32,000 nt of DNA from Schaalia odontolytica (GCF_005696695.1 NZ_CP040006.1:300001-332000), one strand, 5' to 3'. Shown: positions 12,612 to 31,730, counted from the stretch's first letter. Program-made: numbers and translations. The notes: generated by a model not told the origin, from the sequence alone.

Positions 12612-12648
12612 AGAGGGCGGCCCGTCGTACTGCGACGGGCCGCCCTCT
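12612..12648 (+). terminator. Terminator hairpin downstream of clpC
   Basis: Perfect 16-bp stem AGAGGGCGGCCCGTCG / CGACGGGCCGCCCTCT with a 5-nt loop, 43 nt after the clpC stop. Confidence 0.75.
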
Positions 12649-12650
12649 AG

Positions 12651-12679
12651 TTGTCAAGTAATCGCACATCTGATAGATT
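12651..12679 (+). promoter_or_regulatory. Candidate sigma70/SigA-type promoter for the giant-protein operon: TTGTCA, 17-nt spacer, TAGATT
   Basis: -35 at 12651-12656 and -10 at 12674-12679 with a 17-nt spacer, in a locally AT-rich stretch just after the clpC terminator and about 77 nt upstream of ATG 12756. Motif match only; no expression data. Confidence 0.45.
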
Positions 12680-12755
12680 CTCGTTAACTATTAGTATGCG
12701 GTGTAGTCGTGCCACACTATTTCTGGGGTATTGCTCACCGATCGAGAGAGGCCAT

Positions 12756-14630
12756 ATGTCCGCGAAAACGCGACACAATCGGATCAGTGCGAGGCGCCGT
12801 CTGCCGGCGTTCATCCTCGTGCTGCTCGTTGTTGCGCTCTGCGTCGCGGGTGTCATCTACAAGGGCGCCGAGGTGACCCAGGTCAACGTCAATGACGGCG
12901 GCATCTGGGTGACCAACAAGTCCAAGCAGATGGTTGGCCACCTCGACTACGAGGCCCGTATCCTCGACGGCGCGCTGCGCACCGAGGCCACCAACTTCGA
13001 CGTCGGCCAGGCGGGGGAGACCGTCACCGTCTCCGACCTCACCTCTTCGACGGTTGCGCCCGTCAACGTCACCCAGGTTTCCCTCGGCTCTCCGACGGCC
13101 CTGCCCGCGGGTTCCGCGGTCATGCAGGGCGGCGATGTCCTCGGCGTCCTCAATGGCTCCGACGGCACCCTCTGGACGACCTCCGCCGTGAACCCCAGCC
13201 CCTTGAACCTTTCCGAGGGGGCGGCCATCTCCTCGAACATGGGCGCCAGCGCCTTCGTGACCGGTTTGGACGGCTCCGTCTACACTCTTGCCGCCTCGGG
13301 CACGCTGACGACCGTCAAGCGTCAGGGCGCGGTCGATCAGGCCCAGACCTCGACCGTTGAGGGCATCCCCGCGGACGCGCGACTGAGCATGACCGTCGTC
13401 GGCGACCAGGTCGTCGCCCTCGACGGCGAGTCCAACACGCTCTTCCTGCCCGACAACAAGCGGATCGATCTGAGCGCTGCCGGCGTCGAGACCGGCGGCG
13501 TCCTCCAGCAGGCCGGCCCCAAGGCCGATTTTGTCCTGCTCGCCACGCCCACCTCGCTGGTGACGATCCCGCTGGCGGGCGGCGCCCCGACGATCACGGC
13601 CTCCACCGAGGGCGGCGTCAGCGGCACCCCGGCCGCTCCCGTGCGTCACGAAGGCTGCGCGTATGGCGCGTGGACCGGAAGCGGCGCGTACATGCGCGCC
13701 TGCGACGATCCTTCGGCGAACAAGCAGATGGTCGTCGATACGCTGACGACCGCGCGTGAGATCGTGTTCCGCACGAACCGCAAGGCCATCGTCCTCAACG
13801 ACGTCGCCGAGGGCAGCGTGTGGCTGCCCGACTCGAACATGGTCCTCATGGACAACTGGGACGAGGTTGAAAACGAGCTCGAGGAAAACGAGGACGAGCA
13901 GGACAGCCCCGAGCTGACGAACGAGGTCGCGGACCCGCAGCAGCGCGAGGAAAACACCCCGCCCGAGGCCGAGGACGACGAGTTCGGCATTCGCCCGGGA
14001 CGCTCGACCATCCTGCCCGTCCTCGACAACGACTCCGATCTCGACGGCGACGTGCTGACCGCAGCGCCGGTCAAGCAGCCCGAGTGGGGCGTCGTGACCG
14101 TCGCGCGCGGCGGACGAGCCCTGCAGATCAGCGGAGTGTCGGCCTCGCAGGTCGGCTCGACGACGTTTACCTACGCGGCTTCCGACGGCCAGGCTTCGGC
14201 CGAGGCCAACGTGCGCGTCACCATTCACCCCTTCGATCAGAACGAGGGGCCTGCGCAGCTGCGCGTCCCGACCGTCAAGATCGGCGCGGGCGCCCAGATC
14301 CAGTACGAGGCTCTGAGCGATTGGCGCGATCCCGACGGCGACCCGATCTACCTGAAGAACGCCGAGGCCCCCGAGGGGCTGAAGGTCTCCTTCACCGAGG
14401 ACGGCTCCGTCACCATTAACGAGGAGGGCGGCGCAGCCGGCCCGAAGTCCATCGTTCTCACGGTCGCCGACGACCAGGGCGCGGAGACCCGCGGTGAGCT
14501 GATCGTCGACGTTCAGGAGGCCGGAAACCTGCCGCCGTCGGCGAACGGCGACCTGTTCCAGGCGCATCCGGCGAGACCGTCACGCTCGACCCTCTCAAGA
14601 ATGACACCGACCCCAACGGTGACCAGCTGA
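12756..14630 (+). CDS. Giant surface protein, N-terminal reading-frame segment: signal-anchor TM, about 380-aa non-repeat head, acidic linker and the first cadherin/Ig-like repeats. Terminates prematurely after an apparent frameshift near 14568-14572.
   Basis: ATG 12756 with a GAGAGAGG RBS. MSAKTRHNRISARRRLPAFILVLLVVALCVAGVIY is an N-terminal anchor. The repeats carry the V..VLDNDSDLDGD motif. The last 20 codons (PARPSRSTLSRMTPTPTVTS) look out of frame. Confidence 0.8.
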   Translation: MSAKTRHNRISARRRLPAFILVLLVVALCVAGVIYKGAEVTQVNVNDGGIWVTNKSKQMVGHLDYEARILDGALRTEATNFDVGQAGETVTVSDLTSSTVAPVNVTQVSLGSPTALPAGSAVMQGGDVLGVLNGSDGTLWTTSAVNPSPLNLSEGAAISSNMGASAFVTGLDGSVYTLAASGTLTTVKRQGAVDQAQTSTVEGIPADARLSMTVVGDQVVALDGESNTLFLPDNKRIDLSAAGVETGGVLQQAGPKADFVLLATPTSLVTIPLAGGAPTITASTEGGVSGTPAAPVRHEGCAYGAWTGSGAYMRACDDPSANKQMVVDTLTTAREIVFRTNRKAIVLNDVAEGSVWLPDSNMVLMDNWDEVENELEENEDEQDSPELTNEVADPQQREENTPPEAEDDEFGIRPGRSTILPVLDNDSDLDGDVLTAAPVKQPEWGVVTVARGGRALQISGVSASQVGSTTFTYAASDGQASAEANVRVTIHPFDQNEGPAQLRVPTVKIGAGAQIQYEALSDWRDPDGDPIYLKNAEAPEGLKVSFTEDGSVTINEEGGAAGPKSIVLTVADDQGAETRGELIVDVQEAGNLPPSANGDLFQAHPARPSRSTLSRMTPTPTVTS

Positions 14631-14743
14631 CCCTGGCGGCCGTCTCCGGTGCGCCCGCCGGCGCCTCGATCCAGCCCGACCTGGATCACGGAACCATCGA
14701 CTTTAGGGCGACCGAGCCGGGCTCCTACTCCTTCGCCTACACC

Positions 14744-17700
14744 GTGTCCGACGGCATTGCGACGACCCTGGGCATTATCCGCGTCGAGGTCATGGCGCCC
14801 TCGAGCGAGCCCCCCGTCGCCGAAAATGACACGGCGGTCCTGCCGCAGGGTGGCTCCGTCCTCGTCGCGCCCCTGAACAACGACTACGACCCCTCCGGCG
14901 GCCTGCTGTCGATCGTCTCCGTGGATGCCTCGAACACCCCCGAGATCGAAGTTGCCCTCATCGATCGTCACCTGCTGCGCGTCACCGCGCCCGCTGGCCT
15001 GGACCGCACGGTGCAGTTCAGCTACACCGTGTCCAACGGCGTCGGCGAGGCCACGGCCGACGTGATGGTCATCCCCGGAGCGGCGGACCGCTCGGACCTG
15101 CCGCCCATCCTCAAGCCCGACCACGTCAAGGTGCGCGTCGGTGACGTGGGTACCGTGTCGGTCCTGGCGAACGATCGCTCGCCCGCAGGCCTGAACCTGC
15201 AGGTCGAGTCGACCCTCGAATACGACCAGGGTTCCGCGCTGGGAACCCCCTTCGTCACGGGCAACCAGGTGCGCCTTGAGGCTGGGCAGACCCCCGGCCT
15301 CATGGACGTGACCTACTCGGTCATCGACTCCGCGGGCAACCGCGCCTCGAGCACCGTCACCTTCGAGGTGATGGGTGCCTCCGATCAGAACCAGGAGCCG
15401 CGTCCTCGCGACATCACCGCCTGGGCGGCCGCGGGGCAGACCACCCGTATCGCAGTGCCCCTGGACGGCATCGACCCCGACGGTGACTCCGTGACCCTCA
15501 GCGGTCTCGGCTCGTCCCCGCAGCTGGGTAACGCGACCGTCGGCCCGACGTGGATCGACTACACGCCGAACCAGAACGCCTCGGGCACCGACTCCTTCAC
15601 CTACACGGTCGAGGACCGCCAGGGCGGACATGCTTCCGCTCGCGTGCGCGTCGCAATCTCGGCCGCGCCCACGCTGAACCAGAACCCGGTCGCCGTCCCC
15701 GACACGGTCCTGACCCGCCCGGACCGCATGGTGACCGTCAACGTCCTGTCGAACGACGTGGACCCCGACGGCGATCCGCTCGCGCTGGAGGAGGGCAGCC
15801 TCGAGACGGCCACGCCCGAGCTCGACCCGCAGGCTCTGTCCTCCTCGACCATCCAGGTGCACACGCCCTCGCAGGCCGGCACCTACCTCGTGTCCTACGC
15901 GGTGAGCGACGGCCGCGGTGGCTCCGCCCGAGGCACTGTCACCGTTTATGTGCAGGACGACGCACCGCTGAAGGCTCCCATCGCCCGCGATGATTTCGTG
16001 TCCTACGAGGAGCTGCCTACCGACGGCTCGGCCGTGCGCGTGAAGGTCCTCGATAACGACGAGGATCCCGACGGCAGCATCAACGAGCTGACCGTCACGA
16101 GCGCCGAATCCGGCGTGACCGTGGAGGGCTCCGACGTGCTCATCCCGGTGACGGACAGCATGCGCCTGGTCGTCTACACGATTACGGACCGTGACGGCCT
16201 GACCAACTCCGCCGTCGTGACCGTGCCCGGCCGCGACACGACCGCGCCCTTCCTCAACACCGCGGGCCTGCCCATCGAGATGGATGCGGGCACCTCGCGC
16301 ACGATCAACCTGTCGGATTACGTGGTGACGCGCTCGGGCCGCAGCCCGCGCCTCGTGGACGACTCCTCGCCGGTCGCGCAGACCGGCCTGGACTCGGTCG
16401 TCGCCGACTCGTCGACGCAGCTGACGCTGACCGCGAATGCCTCCTTCGGCGGCAACTCGGCGTTCCTCATCCAGGTCGCGGACGGCGACGCCTCCGACTC
16501 GGGCACGCTCACCGCGTCCCTGTCGCTGCCCGTGCGCATCAAGGCGACCCAGAACCAGCCGCCCACCTTCGCCCCGACCGCGATCCGCGTCGAGGCCGGC
16601 GGCGCCGCCGTCACGCAGGATCTCAGGCTCGGCGTGCGCGACCCCGAGGGCACGGACGTCTCGACCTTCACCTACGCGATGGGCTCGGCCCCCGACACGA
16701 TCTCCGCGTCGCTGTCGGGCACCGTCCTGACCGTGTCGGCGCCCGAGAACGCCCCCGCCGGCTCCGCCGGTGCCATCGCCGTGAGCGTCACGGATGAGCA
16801 GGGCAACACCGTCAACGGCTCGATCCCCGTCGAGGTCGTCGGCACCACGAAGCCACGCATCCAGCTCCCGGCATACTCGCGGCAGACCTCGGTGAACAAC
16901 CCCGTGAGCATCGACGTGGCCTCGGAGGCGATCAACCCCTTCCCGGACACGCCGATCTCCCTTGAGGGCGCCGCCATCTCACTCGGGGATGCGACCACGT
17001 CGACCTCCGGCACGGTTGTGACTATCACCCCGAAGTCGGCGGGTACCATCTCCGTCGCCTACCGCGTGAACGACAAGCTCAAGGACCCCTCACGCGTCGT
17101 CCAGGGCACCATCACGGTCACCGTGAAGGGCCCGCCCGACGCGCCCACCGGCGTGGTGGCCCGGGCCAAGGGCCCGACGGGCGCCACCGTGTCCTTCCAT
17201 GCTCCGGCCTCCAACGGCGAACGCATCACCGAATACCGCATCTTCAACGGTAACGACCAGGTTGCGACCTGCACCGAGACCGTGTGCGAGGTGAACGGCC
17301 TGACGACTGGCCGCAGCTACACCTTCACCGTGAAGGCGGTGAATGCCTCCGGCGAGTCTGAAGGCGCGACGTCGAACTCCGTGACCCCCTCCGGCGTCCC
17401 GGATCGCCCGGGCGGCCCGACCGTCACTGCCGGTGACGGCGAACTCGCGGTGCGGTGGGATGCGCCCAACAACAACGGGTCGCGCATCACCTCGTACACC
17501 GTGTACGCGACGACCGCGGGTTCTGTGGCGAGCAGCTGCACGACCAACGGCGAGCAGACGTGCACCATCAAGGGCCTCAAGAATGGCCAGCCGTATGTCG
17601 TCACGGTTGTCGCCACGAATGCGAACGGCAATTCCCAGGCGTCCCCGGGCGTGACGGGCACCCCGAAGGCCACGATCCAGCCCCCGGACAAGCCCGTTAT

Positions 17701-18880
17701 CTCGAAGGCCGAGCCCAAGCAGGTCGGTCAATCCATGGTCCTCGACCTGTCGTGGGTCCTGGGCAAGTCCGGCTCCAGCGGCTGGGGAACGACGACCATT
17801 CAGGTCGGCAGTGAGCCTGTAACGGTCGCGGGTGGTTCGACGTATCGCCAGGTTTCCGTGACTCCGGGCACTACCGTCAACGTGACCGTGACCGTGACCA
17901 ACCTGCAGGGCGAGAGCGCGATATCCGACACGCGTACCGTCACTATTCCCGCCCTCACGCCCGTGCGCGAGCCCAAGGGGGAAGTGCCGAGACCGGACGC
18001 CCCCGGCCTGCACACCCCTCCGGATAACTCCGTGGGTAACATCCAGGTGTCGAATGCTCGACTGCGTGAAGGAAACGGCTACAAGGCCGCCGACCTGAAG
18101 CTCTTCTACGGAGATACCCCGGAGAAGTGCAAGGCGCCCGGTAACCTCGTGAACTTCAACAACGGAGACCGCGCCGACTTCAATATCGGCCCGCTCACCC
18201 CGGGCGCCACGGTGACCTACTACTTCTGCCAGCAGGGCCAGAAGGACGACGGCTCGTACGCCTGGAGTGAAACCGTGGCGGTCACGGGCGTCGTAGGCAA
18301 CGGCCAACGCAGCCGTGATGACGATGACCCCATCCCGACCTTCGAGGTCCAAGCAACCGCGTCCTACGTCCAGAAGAATCGATCCTGGGGTGTGGCTGCT
18401 TCGTGGTCCAATCCGAGCGGAGTGGAGATCACGCAGACCAATACCTGGATCGAGGGACTGAAAGACTCGACCAAGCAGAGTTGGACAGGCCCGCTCACCA
18501 ACTGGTGGGCCGAGGACCTGGCGCCCGGCCACGAGTACACGATCGTCGTCGAGGTCATCGGAAACAACGGTCAGCACCGCGAGGTGAGGACCACCGTGAA
18601 GACCGGAGACTTGGCCGATAACGTGAAGGCAACCTTCGAAGATGCGGTCACCTGCCCGAATGGGCAGCCGTGCGGCTCGATGACGCTGCGTGCCGTCAAC
18701 GCCTCGAACTATTCGTCCGGCGTGACGCTCGTGTGCCGCGTGAAGACCGGACGCCCCTCAGCGATCACCGAGTTCCGTTTCTCGCGGGATAACCCTCAGA
18801 TTACGGGTATCCTGACCGAGGCCACGACGGGACCAGAGCTTCTCGCGAAGCCCCCCGTCGTCGACTGTCGCGCTGAATAG
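14744..18880 (+). CDS. Giant surface protein, C-terminal reading-frame segment: the remaining cadherin/Ig-like 95-aa repeats, 3 clear plus 2 probable FN3 modules, and a Cys-containing terminal domain. The frame is open from 14498, and the repeat sequence continues in this frame from about 14570.
   Basis: The frame-2 translation from 14570 reads GETVTLDPLKNDTDPNGDQLTLAAVSG..., continuing repeat 3 begun in the upstream frame. Recurrent motifs are P.A..D...V..VL.ND.DPDGD and ..Y.V.D..G. FN3 modules show the pattern PDAPTGV...ITEYRI...GLTTGRSYTFTVKAVNASGES. No LPXTG motif or C-terminal TM. The 14744 GTG is only the first start codon in the open frame, probably not a real initiation site. Confidence 0.8.
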   Translation: MSDGIATTLGIIRVEVMAPSSEPPVAENDTAVLPQGGSVLVAPLNNDYDPSGGLLSIVSVDASNTPEIEVALIDRHLLRVTAPAGLDRTVQFSYTVSNGVGEATADVMVIPGAADRSDLPPILKPDHVKVRVGDVGTVSVLANDRSPAGLNLQVESTLEYDQGSALGTPFVTGNQVRLEAGQTPGLMDVTYSVIDSAGNRASSTVTFEVMGASDQNQEPRPRDITAWAAAGQTTRIAVPLDGIDPDGDSVTLSGLGSSPQLGNATVGPTWIDYTPNQNASGTDSFTYTVEDRQGGHASARVRVAISAAPTLNQNPVAVPDTVLTRPDRMVTVNVLSNDVDPDGDPLALEEGSLETATPELDPQALSSSTIQVHTPSQAGTYLVSYAVSDGRGGSARGTVTVYVQDDAPLKAPIARDDFVSYEELPTDGSAVRVKVLDNDEDPDGSINELTVTSAESGVTVEGSDVLIPVTDSMRLVVYTITDRDGLTNSAVVTVPGRDTTAPFLNTAGLPIEMDAGTSRTINLSDYVVTRSGRSPRLVDDSSPVAQTGLDSVVADSSTQLTLTANASFGGNSAFLIQVADGDASDSGTLTASLSLPVRIKATQNQPPTFAPTAIRVEAGGAAVTQDLRLGVRDPEGTDVSTFTYAMGSAPDTISASLSGTVLTVSAPENAPAGSAGAIAVSVTDEQGNTVNGSIPVEVVGTTKPRIQLPAYSRQTSVNNPVSIDVASEAINPFPDTPISLEGAAISLGDATTSTSGTVVTITPKSAGTISVAYRVNDKLKDPSRVVQGTITVTVKGPPDAPTGVVARAKGPTGATVSFHAPASNGERITEYRIFNGNDQVATCTETVCEVNGLTTGRSYTFTVKAVNASGESEGATSNSVTPSGVPDRPGGPTVTAGDGELAVRWDAPNNNGSRITSYTVYATTAGSVASSCTTNGEQTCTIKGLKNGQPYVVTVVATNANGNSQASPGVTGTPKATIQPPDKPVISKAEPKQVGQSMVLDLSWVLGKSGSSGWGTTTIQVGSEPVTVAGGSTYRQVSVTPGTTVNVTVTVTNLQGESAISDTRTVTIPALTPVREPKGEVPRPDAPGLHTPPDNSVGNIQVSNARLREGNGYKAADLKLFYGDTPEKCKAPGNLVNFNNGDRADFNIGPLTPGATVTYYFCQQGQKDDGSYAWSETVAVTGVVGNGQRSRDDDDPIPTFEVQATASYVQKNRSWGVAASWSNPSGVEITQTNTWIEGLKDSTKQSWTGPLTNWWAEDLAPGHEYTIVVEVIGNNGQHREVRTTVKTGDLADNVKATFEDAVTCPNGQPCGSMTLRAVNASNYSSGVTLVCRVKTGRPSAITEFRFSRDNPQITGILTEATTGPELLAKPPVVDCRAE

Positions 18881-18912
18881 ACCACCCCCCGCCACACAAC
18901 AAAGGTAGAAAC

Positions 18913-19878
18913 ATGACCCTTTCCATTGAGGATGCAACCAGGTTCGCCCAGGTCTTCAAGGGCCTCGTCGACGGCGTGTCCGTGGCGGTCCTGGACAAGC
19001 GCCAGGCCGTGCGACTCGCGCTCACGACGATGTTCGCGGGCGGACACCTCCTGCTCGAGGACGCCCCCGGCACCGGTAAGACCGCGCTGGCGCGCGCCAT
19101 CAGCGCCGTCATCGACGGCACGCACTCGCGCATCCAGTTCACCCCGGACCTGCTGCCCTCGGACATCACCGGCGTCAACATGTTCAACCAGAAGACGGGC
19201 GAGTGGGTCTTCCACGCCGGCCCCGTCTTCGCGGAGATCGTCCTGGCAGACGAGATCAACCGTGCGTCGCCCAAGACCCAGTCCGCCCTCCTGGAGGTGA
19301 TGGAAGAGGCCCAGGTGACGGTTGACGGCGTGCGCCGCCCCGCCCCCCAGCCCTTCATGGTCATCGCGACCCAGAACCCCGTCGAGCAGGCAGGCACCTA
19401 CCCGCTGCCCGAGGCCCAGCTGGACCGCTTCCTCATGAAGACCTCGATCGGCTACCCCTCGCGCTCCGCGATGATTGACGTCCTCGACGGCTCGGCCTCG
19501 CCCGACCGCTCGAAGAACCTCAAGCCCCTGCTGTCGGGCAAGGACATCGTCGCCTGGGCGGCCCTGGCCTCGGCGAACCACACCGACCGTGCCGTTCTCG
19601 ACTACGTGGCCGCGCTGGCGGAGGCGACCCGCGAGGACGAGTCCTCGCTGCTGGGCGTGTCCACCCGTGGCGCCATCGGCATGGTGCGCTGCGCACGCGT
19701 GTGGGCGGCCGCGCAGGGACGTAACTTCGTCCTGCCCGACGACATCAAGGCCCTCGCGGTGCCCGTGTGGGCGCACCGTGTCATCGTCGACCCCGACGCC
19801 GCGTTCTCGGGAGCGACCGCCGAGGGCGTCATCCAGCGTGCCCTGACGTCGGTGCCCGCACCGGCCGTCGGCGCGTAA
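18913..19878 (+). CDS. MoxR-family AAA+ ATPase
   Basis: Walker [16 protein letters not shown], Walker [24 protein letters not shown], sensor/Arg-finger region [22 protein letters not shown]. 321 aa, typical MoxR size. Starts 32 nt after the giant gene stop with no intervening terminator. Confidence 0.93.
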
Positions 19879-19897
19879 GGAAACGCCGGATACAACG

Positions 19898-21124
19898 ATG
19901 GAAGGGATGCGAACGGACACCCCCACGATGGTCTCGCCCAAACGGGCGCAGGCCGTTCGTTCGCATCCCCTCAAAGCCCTCGTGGGCGCGGTCACCCCGA
20001 CCGGGTGGGCGGTCATCACGCTCGTCATCGTGGGCCTTGCGCTCGCGGTGGCCTTCCAGTGGGTCGAGGCCCTGGCGTGCGCTCTCGCGGGCGTCGTGGC
20101 CCTGGTGCTCGCCGCGATGCGCGTCGCGTGGCGTCCCCCGCACGTCGTGTCGATCCGCGTCCCCAACGAGCGCATCGTGGCCGGCCAGACCGCCGTTGGC
20201 GAGATTTCGGTGCGCAACGAGCGGGCGCGTTCCGTGCGCTCGGGCATCATCGAGCTGCCGATCGGCACGGGCACGGGCGAGTTCGTCGTGCCCCCGCTGG
20301 GCGCTCACGAGACCTGGGACGAGATGTTCCTGATTTCCTCGCGTCACCGAGGCCTCATCAACGTCGGCCCCGCGCGCGCCGTGCGCTCTGACGCGCTCGG
20401 CCTGCTGCGCCGCGTACGCATGTGGGACGAGCCCGTCCTCCTGCACGTGCACCCGCGCACCGTGCGTGTTCCCTTCGACGCGACCGGCTTCCAGCTGGAC
20501 GTCGAGGGCGTGGCCACGGGCAAGCTCTCCAGCTCCGACGTGTCCTTCCACGCGCTGCGCGACTACGAGCCGGGCGACGACCGCCGCGCCGTGCACTGGC
20601 AGTCGACCGCGCGCCTGGGCAAGCTCATCGTGCGCCAGTACGAGGAGACGCACCGCTCCCACCACGTCATCGTCCTCGATACGTCCCGCGACGCGTGGGA
20701 CCACGACACCTTCGAGACCGCGGTCTCCGTTGCCGGCTCCTTGGGCCTGGCAAACCTGCGCGAATCACGCCCCGTGTCGCTGTCCACGACCGAGGGCTGG
20801 CTGCCGTCGGGCGTCGCCATGCGCATGCTGGACGCCCTCTCCGAGGTGAAGGCGCGTTCCTTCGGCGACCTGTCGCGCCGCGTGCGCGAGGCCGTGGCCC
20901 AGCGTCCCGGCGTCTCCGCCCTCACCCTCATCGTCGGTCCGAACGTGACGGACATCGAGGCCGCCCACCTGGCGCGCCTGGCCCCGATCGACGTTCCGGT
21001 CTCCATTATTCGTATCGGTGCGGAGGGCGTGCGAGCCCGCCGTGACCTCGGCCGTGGTGTGCTCCTGGATTGCTCGACGCTGGACGACCTGCCGCGCATT
21101 ATCGTCGCCGGAGGCCTCGCATGA
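19898..21124 (+). CDS. DUF58 domain-containing protein (vWA-like partner of MoxR) with two N-terminal TM helices
   Basis: DUF58 signature FHALRDYEPGDDRRAVHWQSTARLGKLIVRQYEE and an N-terminal TM hairpin (WAVITLVIVGLALAV / LACALAGVVALVLAAM). An alternative start is ATG 19907 (GGAAGGG RBS). Confidence 0.9.
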   Translation: MEGMRTDTPTMVSPKRAQAVRSHPLKALVGAVTPTGWAVITLVIVGLALAVAFQWVEALACALAGVVALVLAAMRVAWRPPHVVSIRVPNERIVAGQTAVGEISVRNERARSVRSGIIELPIGTGTGEFVVPPLGAHETWDEMFLISSRHRGLINVGPARAVRSDALGLLRRVRMWDEPVLLHVHPRTVRVPFDATGFQLDVEGVATGKLSSSDVSFHALRDYEPGDDRRAVHWQSTARLGKLIVRQYEETHRSHHVIVLDTSRDAWDHDTFETAVSVAGSLGLANLRESRPVSLSTTEGWLPSGVAMRMLDALSEVKARSFGDLSRRVREAVAQRPGVSALTLIVGPNVTDIEAAHLARLAPIDVPVSIIRIGAEGVRARRDLGRGVLLDCSTLDDLPRIIVAGGLA

Positions 21125-23784
21125 GCAAGAACGTCAACACCAAGCCCCGCGCTCAGCGCATCGATTCCCAGGACGAGGCCGCGGCCTCGTCCCTGGAGGC
21201 GACCGAGCAGCACGAGGCCACAGCCCAGGACCGGGCGCCCGCCGCCGCGGGCGAGTCGCCGGCGCCCAAGCCCAGGACCACTCGTAACCGTCTGCTGACG
21301 ATCACGCAGCGCTTCGCGACGTTCCGCACGCGCCTGCCGATCTGGTCGCTGCTCGTCCTCGCCCTGCTGTTCGCCGGACCGGTCGCGGCCTTCGAGCCCG
21401 TCTTCGGCGGGGGAGCGGGCGCGATCGCCGCGGGTGCGGGCGTGGCCTGCGGCCTCTTGATCGCCGCCGCCTCGACGCGTTGGCGCTGGGACGCGCTGAC
21501 GACTGTCCTGAGCGTCGTCGTTACGTACTTCCTGCTGGGCAGTGCGGCCGCCCTGCGCGCCGAGGCCCTCTACGGGTTCCTGCCCACGGGTAAGACCCTG
21601 CAGGTCATGGTGCTGGGTTCCTTCCGCGCGTGGAAGGACCTGCTCACCCTGACGGCTCCCGTGTCCGTCTACTCGGGTCCGGCCCTCGTGCCGTGGATGT
21701 GCGGCCTCGTGTGCGCTGTTCTCGCGGGCCTGATCACTGCCCGCTCCGGACGTGCGGTCCTTGGGTCGATCCCGCTCGTCGTCATGGGCGTCATTTCGGT
21801 TTTCTTTGGCCTGTCTCACCATGCGCTGCCCGTGTGGGCCGTGCTGGCCTGGTGGGCACTCCTGGCCGCCTGGTGGGCGCTGGCCGCCCAGTACCAGCGC
21901 ATCACGCTGGGACAGGACGTCCTCGTGGGTCGCTCCGCCTCGGGCGGCGGCGAGGCGACGGCCGCGCGCCAGTCGCGTTCGACCGTGTACGTCGGCACGC
22001 GCCTGCTGGGCGCCCTCGCCGTCCTCGCGGTGTCCGTCGGCGTCGCGCTGCCCGCTGCGGCGTTCCTCGGCGCGGGCGGGACGCGCATCGTGGGCCGCGA
22101 CCTGGTCCAGCCGCCCCTCGACATTCAGGCCTACCCCTCGCCCCTGTCCTCCTTCCGCCACTACACGACGGACCTGCAGGACGAAACCCTCCTGACCGTC
22201 TCCGACCTGCCGGAGAACCAGCGCGTGCGCATCGCCGCGATGGACGTGTACGACGGCACGACCTTCGGTATGTCCAATAAGCGCGGCGACGGACACACGG
22301 GCTACATTCCCGTGGAGTCCACGATCCCCGGCCGCGCCGAGGGCAACTCCCTCGTGACCGTGACGACGAATGGCCTGTCGGGCCCGTGGGTGCCGGTGCT
22401 CGGCAACCCCTCGGAGATCGCCTTCACGGGTGCGAATTCGGCTGCCCAGAAGGACGGCCTCTACGTGGACACGTGGGCGAACGCCGCGCTGACGACCGGC
22501 CCGGCCGGAACAATGACCTACAACGTGCGCACGTCCTTCGCCGAGCCAGTGCGCGACGAGGACCTGGCGTCCCTGTCGGTCGTGCCGCTGTCTGCAACGG
22601 ACAAGAACGTTCCCGAGGGCCTGGCGACGAAGGTCTCTGAGATCACCCAGAACGCCTCCACGGCTCTGTCCGCCGCGCGCGCGATCGAGCACTACCTGGC
22701 GAACAACGGCTACTACCTGAACGAGAACACGCAGTTCTCGCGTCCGGGTGTGCGCACGGACCGTCTGGAGCGCATGCTGAGCGGCGACGAGCGGCTCATC
22801 GGCGACGACCAGCAGTATTCGGCGCTGATGGCGCTCATGCTGCACCAGCTGGGCATCAACGCCCGCGTGGTCATGGGCGCCTACCCCGAGGGCGGCTCCC
22901 AGGGCGGTCCCGCGACCCTGCACGGCTCGGATATCCGCGCGTGGGTTGAGGTCGAGTTCGAGGGCGGCGTTTGGGCCGTCTTCGATCCCACGCCCCCGCG
23001 CGACCACACGCCGCAGACCCAGGTCCCCAAGCCTCGGAGCGTCCCGCGCCCGCAGGTGCTCCAGCCCCCGGAGCCCCCGGAGGCTCCCGCCGAGCTGCCG
23101 CCGACGACGCGCGACCAGAACGCCGATCCGATGGAGCCCCCGGCCGAGCCCTTCCCGTGGGGTCTCGTCGCCGGCATCTCGGGTGGCATCCTGTTGATTC
23201 TTCTGCCGCCGCTGATGGTCCTGCTGTTCAAGGCGGGACGCCGCAGGCGTCGGCGCCGCGCCGCCGCCGTGGGCGCGCTGGTCGGCTCGTGGGACGAGGT
23301 CGTGGACCTCGCCGCCGACTCTGGCCTGCGCATCGACGTGGGGCGTACGCGCCAGGAGACCGCCTGGTCGCTGGCCTCCCAGTGGGAGCTCGGCGAGGAC
23401 CCGGGCGACCCCTTTACCCTGGTCACGGGCGAGGTGCGCCACGGCGACAACGGTTCGACGGACTCGGTGGAGGTCGACGAGGCCGAGGCCGGCAAGGGCC
23501 GTTACATCATCGACGGCTGGAGTCGCTTCGGTGACGACGTGCCCGCCCCCGTGGTGATCGCACGCTACGCGGATATCGCGAGCTTCGCTTCGAACGGTGC
23601 CTCGCGTGACCGTGCGCGTGACGCGTGGGCCCAAGTGCGTTCCCTGCGTACCCAGGTGAGCAAGAAGGCCGGCTTCCTGGCGCGCGTGCGCCGCGCGCTG
23701 TCCCTGCGAAGCCTGCGCATGCGCCGCAAGTTGCGACTGAGCGCGTCGATTGCGCGCACGATGGATGAGGAGAAGAAGGCGTGA
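21121..23784 (+). CDS. TgpA-like polytopic membrane protein with transglutaminase-core fold (DUF3488-like TM region, TGase core, C-terminal TM and DUF4129-like tail). The catalytic triad appears substituted.
   Basis: ATG 21121 overlaps the DUF58 stop (ATGA). About 6 N-terminal TM helices. Core segment GDDQQYSALMALMLHQLGINARVV...DIRAWVEVEFEGGVWAVFDPTP aligns to the TGase-core pattern G.C..FA......R..GIPAR.V.G...HAW.EV...GW..FDPT. Late TM WGLVAGISGGILLILLPPLMVLLF is followed by RRRRRRR. Confidence 0.85.
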   Translation: MSKNVNTKPRAQRIDSQDEAAASSLEATEQHEATAQDRAPAAAGESPAPKPRTTRNRLLTITQRFATFRTRLPIWSLLVLALLFAGPVAAFEPVFGGGAGAIAAGAGVACGLLIAAASTRWRWDALTTVLSVVVTYFLLGSAAALRAEALYGFLPTGKTLQVMVLGSFRAWKDLLTLTAPVSVYSGPALVPWMCGLVCAVLAGLITARSGRAVLGSIPLVVMGVISVFFGLSHHALPVWAVLAWWALLAAWWALAAQYQRITLGQDVLVGRSASGGGEATAARQSRSTVYVGTRLLGALAVLAVSVGVALPAAAFLGAGGTRIVGRDLVQPPLDIQAYPSPLSSFRHYTTDLQDETLLTVSDLPENQRVRIAAMDVYDGTTFGMSNKRGDGHTGYIPVESTIPGRAEGNSLVTVTTNGLSGPWVPVLGNPSEIAFTGANSAAQKDGLYVDTWANAALTTGPAGTMTYNVRTSFAEPVRDEDLASLSVVPLSATDKNVPEGLATKVSEITQNASTALSAARAIEHYLANNGYYLNENTQFSRPGVRTDRLERMLSGDERLIGDDQQYSALMALMLHQLGINARVVMGAYPEGGSQGGPATLHGSDIRAWVEVEFEGGVWAVFDPTPPRDHTPQTQVPKPRSVPRPQVLQPPEPPEAPAELPPTTRDQNADPMEPPAEPFPWGLVAGISGGILLILLPPLMVLLFKAGRRRRRRRAAAVGALVGSWDEVVDLAADSGLRIDVGRTRQETAWSLASQWELGEDPGDPFTLVTGEVRHGDNGSTDSVEVDEAEAGKGRYIIDGWSRFGDDVPAPVVIARYADIASFASNGASRDRARDAWAQVRSLRTQVSKKAGFLARVRRALSLRSLRMRRKLRLSASIARTMDEEKKA

Positions 23785-25316
23785 CGCCAGCGGTTGCGGG
23801 TATGAGGGGCCCGGAGATTCCCGGTTTCCGGTGGGTGCGCCCGCTGGGCCAGGGTGGCTTCGCCGACGTCTTCCTGTACCGTCAGGAGCTGCCGAGCCGC
23901 GAGGTCGCCATCAAGGTCGTGCGTACGCAGGGCGATGAGCGGGGCACGAAGGAACTGCACCGCGAGGCTGACGCCATGACGCTGCTGGCCGGTCACCCCG
24001 CGGTTGTCGAGCTGCACGGCGTGGGTACGACGGCCGACGGCCGCGCCTACCTGGTGATGGAATATTGCCCGGTGGCTGACCTGCTCACGCAGGTGCGTGC
24101 GCGCCCGATGGACCTGGAGAAGGCCCTCGACACGATGATCAAGGTGTGCGGCGGCGTGGAAATGTTCCACCGCCAGGGTTACGTGCACCGCGATATCAAG
24201 CCGTCCAACATCATGCTGGACGCCTACGGCAAGCCGGTGCTCGCCGACTTTGGCGTGGCCTCGAAGATCGGGCAGCTGGAGGTCGGCGCGTTCGACGGCT
24301 TCTCGGTGCTGTGGGCGCCTCCGGAGCAGCAGGACGTGAATTCCCCCGCCTCGCCCCTGCAGGACGTGTGGGCGCTGGCCTCAACGACGTGGACCTTCGT
24401 GACGGGCCGCAGCCCCTTCGAGGACCCGATCGGCGACAATTCTGCCGCGTCGATCGCGAACCGCGTGCAGCGCGGCCGCATGCGTGGCCTGGGCCGCGCG
24501 GATGCGCCGGCGGAACTCGAGCGCGTGCTGCGTGCGGCCATGGCGATCGACCCGCAGGAGCGCACGCAGAGCGCGATGGAGTTCGGTCAGGGGCTGCAGC
24601 GCGTCCAGAAGGAGCTGGGCCTGCCGCGCACGGAGATGGAGATCAAGGAGAAGCGCTCCAAGGCCTCTACGACCGTCTCGGGGGACCAGAAGACGCGCCT
24701 GCGCGGCGCGCCCGTCATCGACCCGGATAAGACGCGCCTGCGCTCCTCGGCCTCGTACTCCTTCGAGGGTGGGGCGGGCTCCGGCGGCGTTGAGGCCGTC
24801 GCGGATTCATGGAAGATCGAGCGTTCCTCGGACGTGGACGAGGACTCGATCGGTCGAGTGGTCGAGGATTCCTCGGGCGCCAAGCGGGGCATCTCGCCCG
24901 TCGTGGGTGTGCTCCTGGCGCTGGTGGCCGCAGTGATCGCGGCCGGCCTGGTCGTGGGCATGCTGCGCGGCGAAGGCTCCTTTACTCGCATTTCTCCCGC
25001 CCCCGAGACGACGAGTGCGTCTCCCGCCCCCGGGGATGCCGTGGGGTCGGCCCCGCCGCAGGCGTCCGGCCTGGCGGGGGAGTACGCCGACGGCGTGGTG
25101 ACGTGGACGTGGACGGCGCCGACGGGCCCGGCCCCCTCCGACATCGTCTACGCCTACGAGGCCACGGGTCCGGCAGGCACGTCGCGCGGCCGCGTGGAGA
25201 CCACGACGGCGATGGTGGACGGCGCCAGCGGCGAGAATTGCATGGAGATCACGACGGTGTCCCGCTCGTCAGGGCGCATGTCCGAGCCGCTGCGCGCGTG
25301 TGTGGATGTGCCGTGA
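23781..25316 (+). CDS. Hanks-type Ser/Thr protein kinase, single-pass membrane protein with a small extracytoplasmic FN3-like domain
   Basis: LGQGGFADV (Gly loop), VAIKVV (Lys), HRDIKPSNIML (catalytic loop), ADFGVA (DFG), WAPPEQ (APE-like). TM ISPVVGVLLALVAAVIAAGLVVGML. GTG 23781 overlaps the upstream stop (GTGA) and follows GAGGAGAAGAAGG. An alternative start is ATG 23811. Confidence 0.92.
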   Translation: MTPAVAGMRGPEIPGFRWVRPLGQGGFADVFLYRQELPSREVAIKVVRTQGDERGTKELHREADAMTLLAGHPAVVELHGVGTTADGRAYLVMEYCPVADLLTQVRARPMDLEKALDTMIKVCGGVEMFHRQGYVHRDIKPSNIMLDAYGKPVLADFGVASKIGQLEVGAFDGFSVLWAPPEQQDVNSPASPLQDVWALASTTWTFVTGRSPFEDPIGDNSAASIANRVQRGRMRGLGRADAPAELERVLRAAMAIDPQERTQSAMEFGQGLQRVQKELGLPRTEMEIKEKRSKASTTVSGDQKTRLRGAPVIDPDKTRLRSSASYSFEGGAGSGGVEAVADSWKIERSSDVDEDSIGRVVEDSSGAKRGISPVVGVLLALVAAVIAAGLVVGMLRGEGSFTRISPAPETTSASPAPGDAVGSAPPQASGLAGEYADGVVTWTWTAPTGPAPSDIVYAYEATGPAGTSRGRVETTTAMVDGASGENCMEITTVSRSSGRMSEPLRACVDVP

Positions 25317-25392
25317 TGCGGATCATGCAATCGGTTCAGTTGTACGCATCGCGACCCATCGCTTCTCAACGAGGCGCTGGTCACGTCGCGTG

Positions 25393-25398
25393 TAGAAT
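25393..25398 (+). promoter_or_regulatory. Candidate -10 hexamer TAGAAT (preceded by GTG) in the 136-nt (25317-25452) kinase/PP2C spacer; possible internal promoter for the PP2C and FHA genes
   Basis: TAGAAT fits the actinobacterial TANNNT -10. It lies 55 nt upstream of ATG 25453 in a locally lower-GC spacer. No convincing -35. Motif match only. Confidence 0.3.
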
Positions 25399-25452
25399 GG
25401 TCAGTATCGCGCGTGATCCCTCGCGCTCAACGCAGCTAAAGGATGAAGGCAC

Positions 25453-26325
25453 ATGTCTCTGAATGAACATGCGGAACGTCCCGCAGTTCGATGGGGCGCC
25501 TCGACCGACATCGGTCCGGTCCGCTCCGAAAACGAGGATTCATGGCTGGCTGTCCCTCCCGTTTTCGCCGTCGCAGATGGGATGGGTGGTCACCTGGGTG
25601 GTGCCCAGGCCTCGTCGAGTGCCGTCATTACCCTCCAGGAGTTCCTGAGCCCCGATCGTCTGGGCAACCGCCCCGTCGACCTGGTGGACCTGTCTGTCGC
25701 GATCGACGCGGCGGCGACGGCCGTCGCCTCGCTGGCCCCGATCGATAATCCGTCAAGCGCCCCGGGCACGACCCTGTCGGGCGTTATGGTGCTGCGCACC
25801 GCCGAGGGACCGTACTGGCTCTCATTTAACGTGGGCGACTCGCGTGTGTATGTCGTGGGCGGCGGGGGTATCCGTCAGCTCACCCATGACCACTCCGCAC
25901 TGCAGGAGGCGCGCGACCTCGCGGCCACCTCCGGAGCGCCCCGTGTGATCCCTCCCGCAAACGTTGTGACAAAGGCGCTGGGTGCCGGGCAGACCGGAAG
26001 TGTGAAAGCCGACTACACAATCATGCCGCTGGAAGAAGGCGATCGGGCGGTCATCTGTACAGACGGCGTGCACGGCGTCCTGCGCGATTCGCAGATTCAT
26101 GCGGTTGTTGCGGCTGGTGACGGTCCTCAGGGGACCGCGGATACGCTTGTGCGCGCGTCGCTGGAATCGGGCACGCGGGACAATACGACCGCCGTTGTAG
26201 TTTACGCAGGAACCAAATCACGAGTAACATTGACATCGAATGTCATGAATCGGATGATTCAACCAGTACGTCCGGCGTCGATCGAGACCGCTCGCCGGGT
26301 TCCTCGTAGAGAAGGCAGTAACTGA
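25453..26325 (+). CDS. PP2C-family (PPM) Ser/Thr protein phosphatase
   Basis: PPM motifs RSENEDS, FAVADGMGGHLGG, LSGV..., CTDGVHGVL, GTRDNTTAVVV. An AAGGATGAAGG region upstream could serve as RBS. The last 40 or so codons are unusually A/T-ending. Confidence 0.9.
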   Translation: MSLNEHAERPAVRWGASTDIGPVRSENEDSWLAVPPVFAVADGMGGHLGGAQASSSAVITLQEFLSPDRLGNRPVDLVDLSVAIDAAATAVASLAPIDNPSSAPGTTLSGVMVLRTAEGPYWLSFNVGDSRVYVVGGGGIRQLTHDHSALQEARDLAATSGAPRVIPPANVVTKALGAGQTGSVKADYTIMPLEEGDRAVICTDGVHGVLRDSQIHAVVAAGDGPQGTADTLVRASLESGTRDNTTAVVVYAGTKSRVTLTSNVMNRMIQPVRPASIETARRVPRREGSN

Positions 26326-27638
26326 TGCTTCAGATTGGACGCTTCCTGTGCCGCGGGCAGGGCGCGATGCTCGTCACGGGCCCCCTCGGTGCGGCGCTGG
26401 TTCCGCTCGACTTCGCAGACTCTGCGGCCGACGTGGTCTGGGGTCGTGCTGACACCCAGGCGTGGCTGTCTCACGTTCAGGCCGAAAAGGGCGACGCCCT
26501 CCTCCTGGACTGCGCGGGCGAGCAGCCCTACCTGACCGTGCTGGGTAACATCCAGCTGCGCATGCGCGCCGCCGGCCAGATCACCGAGCAGGTGTGGACC
26601 GACCCGATCTGGGCGTGGCCCTTCAACCCCGGCGAGTGGCAGACCTTCGAGGCCACCATCATCGACGGCGACGAGGTCACCTGGATGGTGCCCGCCGCCG
26701 ACCGCGTCGAGGCCGGCGAGATCCGCATCGGCCGCGCGCTCGACGAGGTCGAGGCCCTCGCCTCGATGCCCGTCGACACCATGGGCTTCCTCATCAACCC
26801 CGACATCCCGGATCACGAGCGTCGCGCCCGCCGCGAGGCCCGCGAGGAACTGCCGGAGCCGACCATGCACACCGCCTCCGTGGACCTGGCTGCCGTCGAG
26901 GCCCAGTTCCTCGCCGCGACCAGCAACGGTCCCGTGTCGCTGAGCTCCGCTTCCCGCACCCCCGAGGAGGTCACCGAGGAGTCGGACGAGCAGATCGAAG
27001 ACGAGTCACACGAGGAGGCGCCCGCGAAGGACGCCGAGCAGCCCTCGGGTGAGCTCTACGTCGTCGCCGACGCGGAGGAACCGCCGGTCGACACGGCGGA
27101 GTCCGCCGAGCGCGCCGGTGGTTTCGGCGAGTCCGGTACCCCGGCCTCGTCCGAGGTCGTCGCTGAGGCTCCCGTCGCTGAGCCTCCCGCCGCCCCCGAG
27201 GCCATGAGCGCCGAGGGCCTGGCCGACCTGGGTGCCGAGACCGACACCGAGGCGACGATCCTGCGCCTGGCCCCCACGAACTCGGGCCCCGCCGCGCCCG
27301 TCGCGTTCCTGATTCACGGCGGCACCGTGCCCGTCGAGGTTTCCCGCGACGTCGTCATCGGCCGCGACCCCGACGCCCGTGCGCTGACCGGCCGCCCCGT
27401 CGCGACCGTCCTGCGCGTGCCCAGCCCGCAGACCGAGATCTCCCGTTCGCACTGCGCCGTCATGATGACGACCCCCGGCTCCTGGGCCCTCATGGACCTG
27501 GGCAGCGCGAACGGCACCGTCCTGCGTCACGCCGACGGCTCGTTCCAGGACGTCACCCCCATGGTGACGATCGCCCTGAACGACGGCGACCTCATCGACG
27601 TGGGCGAGGGAACCACCATCGAGTTCCGCGTGCGCTGA
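26325..27638 (+). CDS. FHA domain-containing protein: unrecognised N-terminal domain of about 170 aa, an acidic/Pro-Ala-rich linker, and a C-terminal FHA domain
   Basis: The C-terminal segment VVIGRDPDA...EISRSHCAVMMTTPGSWALMDLGSANGTVLRH...LNDGDLIDVGEGTTIEFRV carries the FHA hallmarks (GR, SR.H, DLGS.NGT). The ATG overlaps the PP2C stop (TGATG). Confidence 0.88.
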   Translation: MLQIGRFLCRGQGAMLVTGPLGAALVPLDFADSAADVVWGRADTQAWLSHVQAEKGDALLLDCAGEQPYLTVLGNIQLRMRAAGQITEQVWTDPIWAWPFNPGEWQTFEATIIDGDEVTWMVPAADRVEAGEIRIGRALDEVEALASMPVDTMGFLINPDIPDHERRARREAREELPEPTMHTASVDLAAVEAQFLAATSNGPVSLSSASRTPEEVTEESDEQIEDESHEEAPAKDAEQPSGELYVVADAEEPPVDTAESAERAGGFGESGTPASSEVVAEAPVAEPPAAPEAMSAEGLADLGAETDTEATILRLAPTNSGPAAPVAFLIHGGTVPVEVSRDVVIGRDPDARALTGRPVATVLRVPSPQTEISRSHCAVMMTTPGSWALMDLGSANGTVLRHADGSFQDVTPMVTIALNDGDLIDVGEGTTIEFRVR

Positions 27639-27652
27639 TTGACTCAAACGCT

Positions 27653-27688
27653 GCAGGTGGGGCGGGCCTTCGGGCTCGCCCCACCTGC
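27653..27688 (+). terminator. Strong terminator hairpin ending the operon
   Basis: Perfect 12-bp GC-rich stem GCAGGTGGGGCG / CGCCCCACCTGC with a 12-nt loop, followed by GTTTGTATT. Begins 15 nt after the FHA gene stop. Confidence 0.8.
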
Positions 27689-27768
27689 GTTTGTATTAGC
27701 CTGGTGTGCGTCACCGCCCCGGCCTAGGCGGAGCGGTATGCCCCTCAACCAGCGGAAGGTCAGTCCCG

Positions 27769-28755: not shown

Positions 28756-29012
28756 GTCGCGGCACCGCCCGGCTGTCGCGCGGTCGTGCCTTCGAGGGGG
28801 AAGGTTGTGACGTTGCCGCTGATCGGATGACTTTCTCATCCCGTGCGCCCGGTGAGGAAAGATGAGGGGGCTGTCCCGGCCTCGTCTATGTAAGGACAAT
28901 CATACTCTCGCGCGCCTTGAGGTGACCTAGGTCCCTTGAAGCGTGTATCCTTACCCCTGGTAGCGACCCGCTGGTGGGTCGGTCATCGCAAACACGGAAG
29001 TTGAGGACCACG

Positions 29013-31730
<2,718 letters not shown>

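Follow-up and report, generated by a model that had tools for sequence, protein, structure and literature searches.

The probable Esr1 locus esrA-G of Schaalia odontolytica XH001, a PFNA-type gene cluster with a truncated EsrA and a non-canonical EsrD

Results

Organization of the cluster

The DNA analysed here is a 32,000-nucleotide window of the Schaalia odontolytica chromosome (GCF_005696695.1, NZ_CP040006.1:300001-332000), and all coordinates count from its first letter as 1. Seven co-directional genes occupy the + strand between clpC (10101-12569) and the gene for pyruvate phosphate dikinase (PPDK; 28974-31730), in DNA of high GC content (about 63-72% in 2-kb windows). Positions 11121-32000 are identical at 20,880 of 20,880 nt (100%) to LLVT01000001.1 of GCA_001462375.1. 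This contig belongs to the draft genome LLVT00000000 of strain XH001 (Actinomyces, now Schaalia, odontolytica subsp. actinosynbacter), a human oral commensal and the host of the Saccharibacterium TM7x (PMC4742689). We propose, with a probability of roughly 0.85, that the seven genes are the Esr1 locus esrA-G of XH001, a PFNA-type cluster in which EsrA is truncated, EsrD is non-canonical and esrF-esrG probably have a promoter of their own. The genes and features of the cluster are the following.

12613-12647, + strand: GC-rich perfect hairpin 3' of clpC, the upstream boundary (RNA fold -40.3 kcal/mol; no T-run)
12651-12679, + strand: putative promoter-like site TTGTCA-17-TAGATT upstream of esrA (9/12 matches in a consensus scan, TG before the second hexamer)
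12756-14630, + strand: 5' fragment of esrA1 (ORF A, 624 aa; WP_316043223.1), with a helix, a beta-propeller, two Ig repeats and about 20 out-of-frame residues (Pfam Big_9)
14570-14572, + strand: site of a 1-nt deletion (GGG to GG) at about codon 604 of esrA1, from alignment to intact relatives
14573-18880, + strand: 3' part of esrA1 in a shifted frame, coding for Ig/cadherin-like repeats, a pair of fn3 domains and a C-terminal region that is variable
18913-19878, + strand: esrB, MoxR-family AAA+ ATPase (Pfam AAA_3 5e-62, AAA_lid_2, bpMoxR 2e-11)
19898-21124, + strand: esrC, DUF58 (vWA-like) protein with an N-terminal membrane hairpin (Pfam DUF58; transmembrane-like 27-79; MIDAS-like DTSRD at residue 261)
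21121-23784, + strand: esrD, polytopic TgpA-like protein whose transglutaminase core is degenerate (Pfam TgpA_N and Transglut_core; transmembrane segments)
23781-25316, + strand: esrE, Hanks-type Ser/Thr kinase with one transmembrane segment and a small extracytoplasmic C-terminal domain (Pkinase 8e-37; VAIK, HRD, DFG; transmembrane-like 367-399)
25390-25399, + strand: conserved -10-like box GTGTAGAATG, that is GTGTA(G/A)AATG, a candidate internal promoter in the esrE-esrF spacer (11 loci, S. odontolytica/meyeri clade)
25453-26325, + strand: esrF, PP2C phosphatase with intact catalytic motifs (PP2C_2; DGMGG, DGV, RDN)
26325-27638, + strand: esrG, FHA protein (WP_060566263.1; Pfam FHA 344-427; phosphothreonine-binding motifs GR, SRSH and NGT)
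27652-27689, + strand: intrinsic terminator closing the cluster (17-bp stem with 13 GC pairs, T-rich tail; fold -42.1 kcal/mol)

Listing of the open reading frames (ORFs) and Pfam searches with every product (a Big_9/cadherin/fn3 giant protein, then MoxR AAA_3, DUF58, TgpA_N with Transglut_core, Pkinase, PP2C_2 and FHA) bear out a preliminary description of the window, made from the sequence alone, which had listed seven co-directional genes with these domains. Its junctions were also read correctly, with 32 nt between esrA and esrB, 19 nt between esrB and esrC, and overlaps of ATGA (esrC/esrD), GTGA (esrD/esrE) and TGATG (esrF/esrG); the tight coupling it had deduced from them is correct, and the one loose junction, a 136-nt spacer that separates the PP2C gene from the kinase gene, had been left out. 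Four membrane products were expected and four carry hydrophobic transmembrane-like segments. The strong downstream terminator is present as claimed, and a + strand terminator scan inside the cluster gave only stems of 5-6 bp within coding sequence, none of them credible, which agrees with the claim that no terminator interrupts it. Other claims held in part. The upstream boundary was described as a terminator plus a promoter; the hairpin and the promoter-like site are both there, but the hairpin is without a T-run and, lacking that tail, does not appear in the terminator-scan output. A single transcription unit fits the absence of internal terminators but is probably too simple, given the conserved -10-like box before esrF. 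The intact giant gene of about 2040 aa does not stand: two ORFs of 624 and 1378 aa are found in its place, their frames split by the 1-nt deletion.

Relation to the Esr1 pathway

The Esr1 pathway, with which oral Actinobacteria detect parasitic Saccharibacteria, was described in S. odontolytica F0309, which has two esr clusters, in a study of esrA-G with deletion mutants, secretomics and phosphoproteomics (Wang et al., bioRxiv Sept 2026, PMC13622651). EsrA1 of F0309 carries a sec signal; it has a beta-propeller at its N-terminus and 14 Ig-like domains, and lacks an LPXTG motif. Deletion of esrA1 abolished the response of both proteome and transcriptome to the epibiont TM7-008, the EsrG T152A substitution gave the same phenotype, and phosphorylation of T152 was epibiont-specific. 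EsrD retains EsrA on the cell, and EsrA is released when esrD is deleted. Esr1 signalling raises the expression of cell-wall polysaccharide genes, and the second cluster, Esr2, is embedded among esx genes (PMC13622651).

The XH001 cluster comes from the same species and has the same seven genes in the same order. Its EsrA carries an export helix at the N-terminus, together with a beta-propeller and many consecutive Ig-like repeats, and its translation shows no LPXTG. The locus is flanked by purA, SpoU, clpC and PPDK genes with no esx genes there, and these housekeeping flanks identify it as an Esr1-type locus; as for F0309 Esr1, it does not lie beside esx, and an esx-linked paralog is present in related genomes. 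EsrG (WP_060566263.1), EsrD (WP_187348960.1) and the two esrA fragments (WP_316043223.1 and WP_316043224.1) are exact matches to S. odontolytica RefSeq proteins. We infer from these sequence features that the locus is the strict ortholog of F0309 esr1, from which it differs in the interruption of esrA1 by a 1-nt deletion.

The preliminary description had suggested an envelope-associated assembly in which a MoxR/vWA-like module acts under Thr-phosphorylation control, and this matches the experiments on the orthologous Esr1 system (PMC13622651). It had added that no functional characterisation of the combined architecture was known; the PFNA operon (PMC8430577) and the esrA-G pathway (PMC13622651) refute that statement, and the module was thus already in the literature. 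As a description the account was correct, for the module is real and conserved; it has been studied mechanistically in the same species since Sept 2026. Three points go beyond the literature consulted, namely the esrA1 frameshift of XH001, the loss of the EsrD nucleophile and the -10-like box before the PP2C gene. In the main text of the preprint, no mention was found of the nucleophile loss or of a promoter-like box at esrF-esrG, the words "frameshift" and "pseudogene" do not occur, and XH001 is mentioned once, in passing (PMC13622651).

EsrB, EsrC and the transglutaminase-like protein EsrD

EsrB has an intact P-loop (APGTGKT) and Walker B motif (IVLADE) and matches bpMoxR (PF20030) with 43.7 bits, above the cut-off of 27. 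The gene for its DUF58 partner EsrC is followed by esrD, whose product resembles Pseudomonas aeruginosa TgpA (6G49/6G4H). Both proteins consist of a polytopic TgpA_N domain and an extracytoplasmic Transglut_core domain, MoxR and DUF58 genes adjoin in both cases, and the post-nucleophile helix and the WVE and DPT motifs of TgpA align with EsrD. The difference lies in the defining catalytic triad, which EsrD does not have: in the alignment with 6G49, D563, R606 and D622 stand at the Cys, His and Asp positions. The corresponding codons are 22807-22809, 22936-22938 and 22984-22986. We take the TgpA triad to be Cys404, His448 and Asp464, whose spacings of 44 and 60 residues fit this alignment.

These substitutions extend through the family. 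Among 178 EsrD-family sequences of the Esr1 and Esr2 types (43-100% identity), the Cys position is Asp in all 178 and the Asp position is likewise Asp in all 178, while the His position is variable (R in 95, H in 81, Q in 2) and is Arg in the Esr1 clade of S. odontolytica. EsrD itself has cysteines only at residues 110, 194 and 198, all within the N-terminal membrane region. As there is no nucleophile Cys, thioester chemistry is unavailable to the protein. Judged by its residues, EsrD is not a canonical Cys-His-Asp transglutaminase, which argues against covalent anchoring of EsrA by canonical chemistry.

The Esr preprint proposes that EsrD is a true transglutaminase that links EsrA covalently to a cell-surface component. 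The Pfam Transglut_core match of EsrD (8e-15) and the invariant third triad residue are in keeping with that proposal, but the nucleophile is replaced throughout the family, the His is replaced by Arg in the very clade concerned, and the remaining cysteines are confined to the membrane region. The release of EsrA from the esrD mutant is equally well explained by the loss of a non-covalent anchor or scaffold. We therefore regard a true transglutaminase as rather unlikely and favor, by a modest preference, the scaffold reading, with non-canonical catalysis as its alternative. The loss of the cysteine bears on covalent anchoring, an untested step of the published Esr model.

Interruption of esrA1

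The open frame of ORF A runs from 12651 to 14630, and ORF B, which lies in a different frame, encodes 1378 aa from a GTG at 14744 (14744-18880; WP_316043224.1). At the junction the window reads CATCC-GGCGAG where relatives read CACCCGGGTGAG; in codons, CAC CCG GGT GAG of the relatives corresponds to CAT CCG G-C GAG in the window. ORF A thus comprises about 604 native residues, which span the export helix and the propeller together with two Ig repeats, and an out-of-frame tail of about 20 residues. The remaining residues of EsrA, about 1440 in number, have no export signal, and a hydrophobicity scan of ORF B revealed neither a signal sequence nor a transmembrane-like segment. Insertion of one G in silico produces an ORF of 2041 aa with no other stop. 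Since a single inserted base restores the reading frame, the lesion is single and recent.

The same deletion is present in the 2015 draft LLVT01000001.1, where no protein is called at this place in the GenBank record, and in all 10 run assemblies that were fetched among 18 contigs with the fragment (SRR26142723-30 and SRR26748254-62). The runs SRR26748254-62 would be the XH001 RNA-seq project PRJNA1037312, to judge from their number (nine) and the date on which they were deposited. The deletion is not present in the related loci L001, L002, L007 and L097, and among the 59 related loci that could be checked, 56 have esrA as a single ORF across the site. On a metagenome scaffold whose EsrD is identical, esrA is intact and encodes 2047 aa. 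We conclude that the XH001 lineage truly carries the break.

Three explanations of the broken frame were considered and set aside. A one-off assembly error is ruled out by the 2015 draft and the 10 of 10 run assemblies. Programmed frameshifting finds no slippery heptamer in T CCG GCG, and the relatives have a single frame in 56 of 59 cases. Phase variation is unlikely, the tract being only GG or GGG and its state identical in every assembly.

A broader alternative is that the break is harmless, either as a systematic sequencing error or because the fragments, or a ribosomal -1 slip, still yield a working sensor, so that Esr1 would be fully active. The lesion does lie within a short C/G run, the rest of esrA has no further stop, so that any decay must be very recent, and ORF A retains the export helix and the whole propeller. 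On the other side, the deletion is common to the 2015 draft and ten separately assembled runs from two Sequence Read Archive (SRA) series, RefSeq holds both fragments, T CCG GCG does not have the X XXY YYZ form of a slippery heptamer, and ORF B has no signal or transmembrane segment with which to reach the surface. We consider a harmless break improbable. We favor a truncated EsrA, by which Esr1 input would be lost or severely crippled in XH001.

A literature search on a frameshift in XH001 gave nothing relevant. The mutations that arose in TM7x-exposed XH001n include one gene with a single-nucleotide deletion and one gene for a "putative secreted protein" (Bor et al. 2018, PMC6275545), either of which might be esrA. 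Association with TM7x lowers the expression of a cell-wall polysaccharide cluster in XH001 (PMC11032452). This lowering, set against the increase seen in F0309, is consistent with a lost Esr1 input and is no proof of it.

The only other shortened esrA genes, with ORFs of 1351-1692 codons, occur in L027, L032 and L067, which come from two metagenome-assembled genomes (MAGs) of sample DRR214959. Displaced DUF58 or MoxR matches are also found in these loci, which suggests error-prone assemblies and not biological pseudogenes.

Domain structure of EsrA

The N-terminus of EsrA has a hydrophobic segment (residues 10-41) that is modelled as a helix at residues 13-34 and fits a cleaved signal and a signal-anchor alike. 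Residues 1-425 were modelled with AlphaFold2 on an alignment of 35 sequences (pLDDT 83.6, pTM 0.76). The model comprises an all-beta domain of about 28 strands at residues 50-365. Comparison with the PDB gave 746 matches at E<=1e-3; those ranked highest are without exception propellers, including YVTN, BamB, cd1 nitrite reductase and LRP6. In this model, the N-terminal domain of EsrA is a beta-propeller.

The frame-repaired protein continues with nine strong and two weak Big_9-type repeats and two fn3 domains, and has another 400 or so residues in its C-terminal part. EsrA thus has at least 13 Ig-like or fn3 repeats, compared with 14 Ig-like domains in F0309.

Among close relatives, the C-terminal third of EsrA is the most variable part (residues about 1300-1900, window about 16650-18450), with 60-89% identity per 100 residues and a minimum at about 1700-1800; the propeller is 95-100% identical. 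Relative to scaffold L097, the DNA of esrA is about 95% identical and that of esrB-esrG about 99%. This pattern of substitution suggests that the filament, rather than the propeller, may be under recombination or diversifying selection at this evolutionary scale.

Kinase, phosphatase and FHA protein

EsrG is the proposed endpoint of the relay formed with the kinase EsrE and the phosphatase EsrF. It contains T152 in the motif SMPVD-T-MGFLI, which is invariant in 12 orthologs down to 62% identity. An N-terminal domain precedes an acidic linker and the FHA domain, and this layout is kept in 10 of 10 distant EsrG homologs. The model of the N-domain (pLDDT 86.6) loses confidence past residue 140.

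Among 1.8 billion proteins, the N-domain belongs to a narrow family that forms 43 clusters at 50% identity. Comparison of the N-domain with the PP2C of the operon by hhalign gave a probability of 0.1%. A Foldseek search found no structure at E<=1e-3; six of the seven best distinct PDB entries are PP2C-family proteins, with E values of 0.09-1 and TM-scores of about 0.3-0.4. No DGxGG motif is visible in the translation of the domain.

Candidate promoter before esrF

The esrE-esrF spacer, compared across 11 loci, is variable between species except for the -10-like box GTGTAGAATG, a GC-rich palindrome and the ribosome-binding site. The palindrome, CGCGCGTGATCCCTCGCGC at 25408-25427, lies just 3' of the box and is likewise maintained throughout the S. 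odontolytica/meyeri clade; an operator or a structure in the 5' untranslated region are possible roles for it. In the PFNA operon of Bifidobacterium longum GT15, a second transcription start site lies 58-61 bp upstream of prpC (PMC8430577). The conserved box, taken together with this start site, points to a second promoter for esrF-esrG. These two genes are probably transcribed from such a promoter as well as by read-through from esrA.

Conservation and paralogous clusters

A scan based on the transglutaminase alignment, with one genome per species, yielded 71 loci, all of them from organisms named as Actinomycetes. Most are from Schaalia, Pauljensenia and Actinomyces, with one Propionibacteriaceae MAG and a few Xylanimonas, Sanguibacter and Trueperella records. 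Two loci of lower GC content (L051 and L075) were read by ORF listing and tblastn. The order esrA-MoxR-DUF58-transglutaminase-kinase is kept in every fetched locus long enough to show it, and the PP2C and FHA genes then follow in about 25 fetched loci. Being conserved in order, the arrangement is not due to chance. Co-occurrence of all seven genes in conserved order, the check put forward in the preliminary description, is thus found for a five-gene core that is widely conserved, but not for PP2C and FHA, which among the fetched loci are linked only in the S. odontolytica/meyeri/georgiae/hongkongensis group. In distant clpC-linked loci, such as those of Actinomyces sp. ph3 and S. vaccimaxillae, neither gene was detected within 10 kb.

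Many genomes carry a second copy with about 49% identity in the transglutaminase, followed by several Peptidase_S8 genes. These Esr2-like loci (L034-L049 and others, for example L046:2633-16550) have the order esrA2-DUF58-transglutaminase-kinase, then at least three Peptidase_S8 (mycosin-like) genes, with radA upstream; no MoxR, PP2C or FHA gene was detected within 10 kb of them. The second copies fit the esx-linked Esr2.

In Actinomyces bouchesdurhonensis and Pauljensenia sp. 20925_1_34 (L026:14281-20232 and L019), the kinase gene is followed by a second EsrA-like ORF of 1983 aa with Big_9, cadherin and fn3 matches, and PP2C and FHA genes do not come directly after the kinase gene. These may be tandem or rearranged esr clusters. 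Five loci (L006, L025, L040, L047 and L063) are from records titled Xylanimonas cellulosilytica 352_XCEL, Sanguibacter keddieii 250_SKED and Trueperella pyogenes 331_TPYO. Their transglutaminases are 95-98% or 44-50% identical to EsrD of the window, and the high-identity loci show full Schaalia synteny. The records so titled are probably mislabelled or contaminated assemblies.

Flanking sequences

In the assembly of SRR26142724 (L076), clpC is joined to esrA without 77 bp (window 12621-12697) that hold the promoter-like site and the 3' portion of the hairpin; the majority of the remaining run contigs begin near 12657. This gap is probably a collapse of the de Bruijn graph at the perfect palindrome and not a real deletion. 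Between the esr terminator and the PPDK gene lies a gene (27706-28755) for a 349-aa protein (328 aa as annotated) that has an N-terminal transmembrane segment and no Pfam match. Nearly all close relatives are without it: the space measures about 45 bp in L001 and about 1.19 kb here, and only L016 has a counterpart, 35% identical. The gene looks like a strain-specific insertion.

Discussion

The XH001 cluster can be placed in a mechanism drawn from the work on F0309. EsrA would be exported and form an Ig-like filament whose N-terminal beta-propeller detects a Saccharibacterium on the cell surface. Polytopic EsrD would hold EsrA on the cell, as a scaffold or by other chemistry, and EsrB (MoxR) with EsrC (DUF58/vWA-like) may assemble or remodel the EsrA-EsrD complex. 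Activation of the membrane kinase EsrE would lead to phosphorylation of EsrG at Thr152, in a disordered linker, and the C-terminal FHA domain of EsrG presumably reads the phosphothreonine. A transcriptional programme of Esx secretion and cell-wall polysaccharide genes would follow, and the PP2C EsrF would reset the signal. In such a scheme esrF-esrG would be transcribed from their own promoter as well as by read-through from esrA, and the truncation of EsrA past residue ~604 would leave XH001 with a lost or severely crippled Esr1 input.

Several points weigh against this assignment and its consequences for XH001. Orthology with F0309 rests on species, architecture, residue numbering and domain boundaries and not on direct alignment, and the function of Esr1 was shown in F0309, not in XH001. 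The 624-aa fragment, which has the export helix and the propeller, might keep some activity, and the paralogous Esr2, outside the window, might compensate. The assemblies that bear the deletion are probably all from one laboratory lineage, so the deletion could have been acquired in the laboratory and need not be a property of the original isolate. The opposite regulation of the polysaccharide genes could equally be due to the different epibiont (TM7x instead of TM7-008) or to different growth conditions. Finally, the N-domain of EsrG can be labelled a pseudophosphatase only very tentatively.

Two known types of system resemble the cluster. The Bifidobacterium PFNA core consists of pkb2-fn3-aaa_atp-duf58-tgm, to which some species add prpC, fha and a hypothetical gene (PMC8430577, PMC6803598), and the PFNA cluster is an operon in B. 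longum GT15 (PMC8430577). The same protein families form one co-directional cluster in both, with a five-gene core and optional PP2C and FHA genes. A transcription start precedes the phosphatase gene in PFNA where a candidate box is found here, and the proteins are highly divergent between species. The PFNA cluster, however, opens with the kinase gene, which here stands after the transglutaminase-like gene; PFNA has also been interpreted as a sensor of host cytokines, and the likeness to it is one of gene families and not of sequence comparison. The second type comprises the MoxR-vWA-beta-propeller ternary systems (Kaur, Burroughs, Iyer, Aravind, eLife 2020, PMC7159879), with which the cluster shares a MoxR of the bpMoxR type, a vWA-like partner, a propeller sensor, and kinase and FHA signalling parts. 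It differs from them in that the propeller tips a surface filament of Ig repeats (about 2040 aa), a polytopic TgpA-like protein is added, and neither toxin nor effector domains occur in the esr cluster. The Esr preprint states that the survey of Kaur et al. missed the esr loci (PMC13622651).

The likeness to these systems bears on what the cluster does. It could be a generic module for envelope quality control or assembly, in which the MoxR and vWA-like proteins mature an adhesin while the kinase, PP2C and FHA proteins are housekeeping regulators, with no part in inter-bacterial conflict. MoxR-vWA pairs are chaperone-like in other systems, and four of the products here are membrane-associated. 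Yet EsrB matches the bpMoxR (PF20030) of the MoxR-vWA-beta-propeller conflict systems, the paralogous copy sits among mycosin-like genes beside esx, and experiments in the same species tie the module to the sensing of epibionts (PMC13622651), which makes a generic role quite unlikely. Least probable of all is a PFNA-type host sensor, with an FN3 surface protein that binds cytokines such as TNF-alpha and a kinase and MoxR that relay immune signals or adhesion: the gene set is that of PFNA, down to the optional prpC and fha and the second start before prpC (PMC8430577), and the organism is a human oral commensal, but in the same species the response to the Saccharibacterium is abolished by esrA1 deletion and T152 is phosphorylated only with the epibiont (PMC13622651), the kinase does not lead as it does in PFNA, and of the cytokine-receptor motifs looked for in EsrA, a single WSxPS-like match (WSNPS, residue 1884) lies outside the Pfam fn3 matches and no DGxEG/EA/VS was found.

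Assignment of the cluster to Esr1 is therefore retained. A further, tentative step would be to regard XH001 as a natural Esr1 loss-of-function mutant, which would help to explain its recovery in stable co-culture with TM7x and the lowered expression of its polysaccharide genes with TM7x, together with an EsrD that is a non-covalent pseudo-transglutaminase loaded by the MoxR/vWA pair; we see this combination as possible, though doubtful.

With the module itself already described, the remaining interest lies in the lesion of the sensor in a widely used host, the pseudo-enzyme status of EsrD and the likely bipartite transcription. XH001 is the standard host of the first cultivated Saccharibacterium and has served about a decade of work on TM7x. 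If XH001 is blind through Esr1, results obtained with XH001 and with F0309 would not be directly comparable, and if the break is functional, much of the physiology of XH001 and TM7x would have come from a host unable to mount an Esr1 response.

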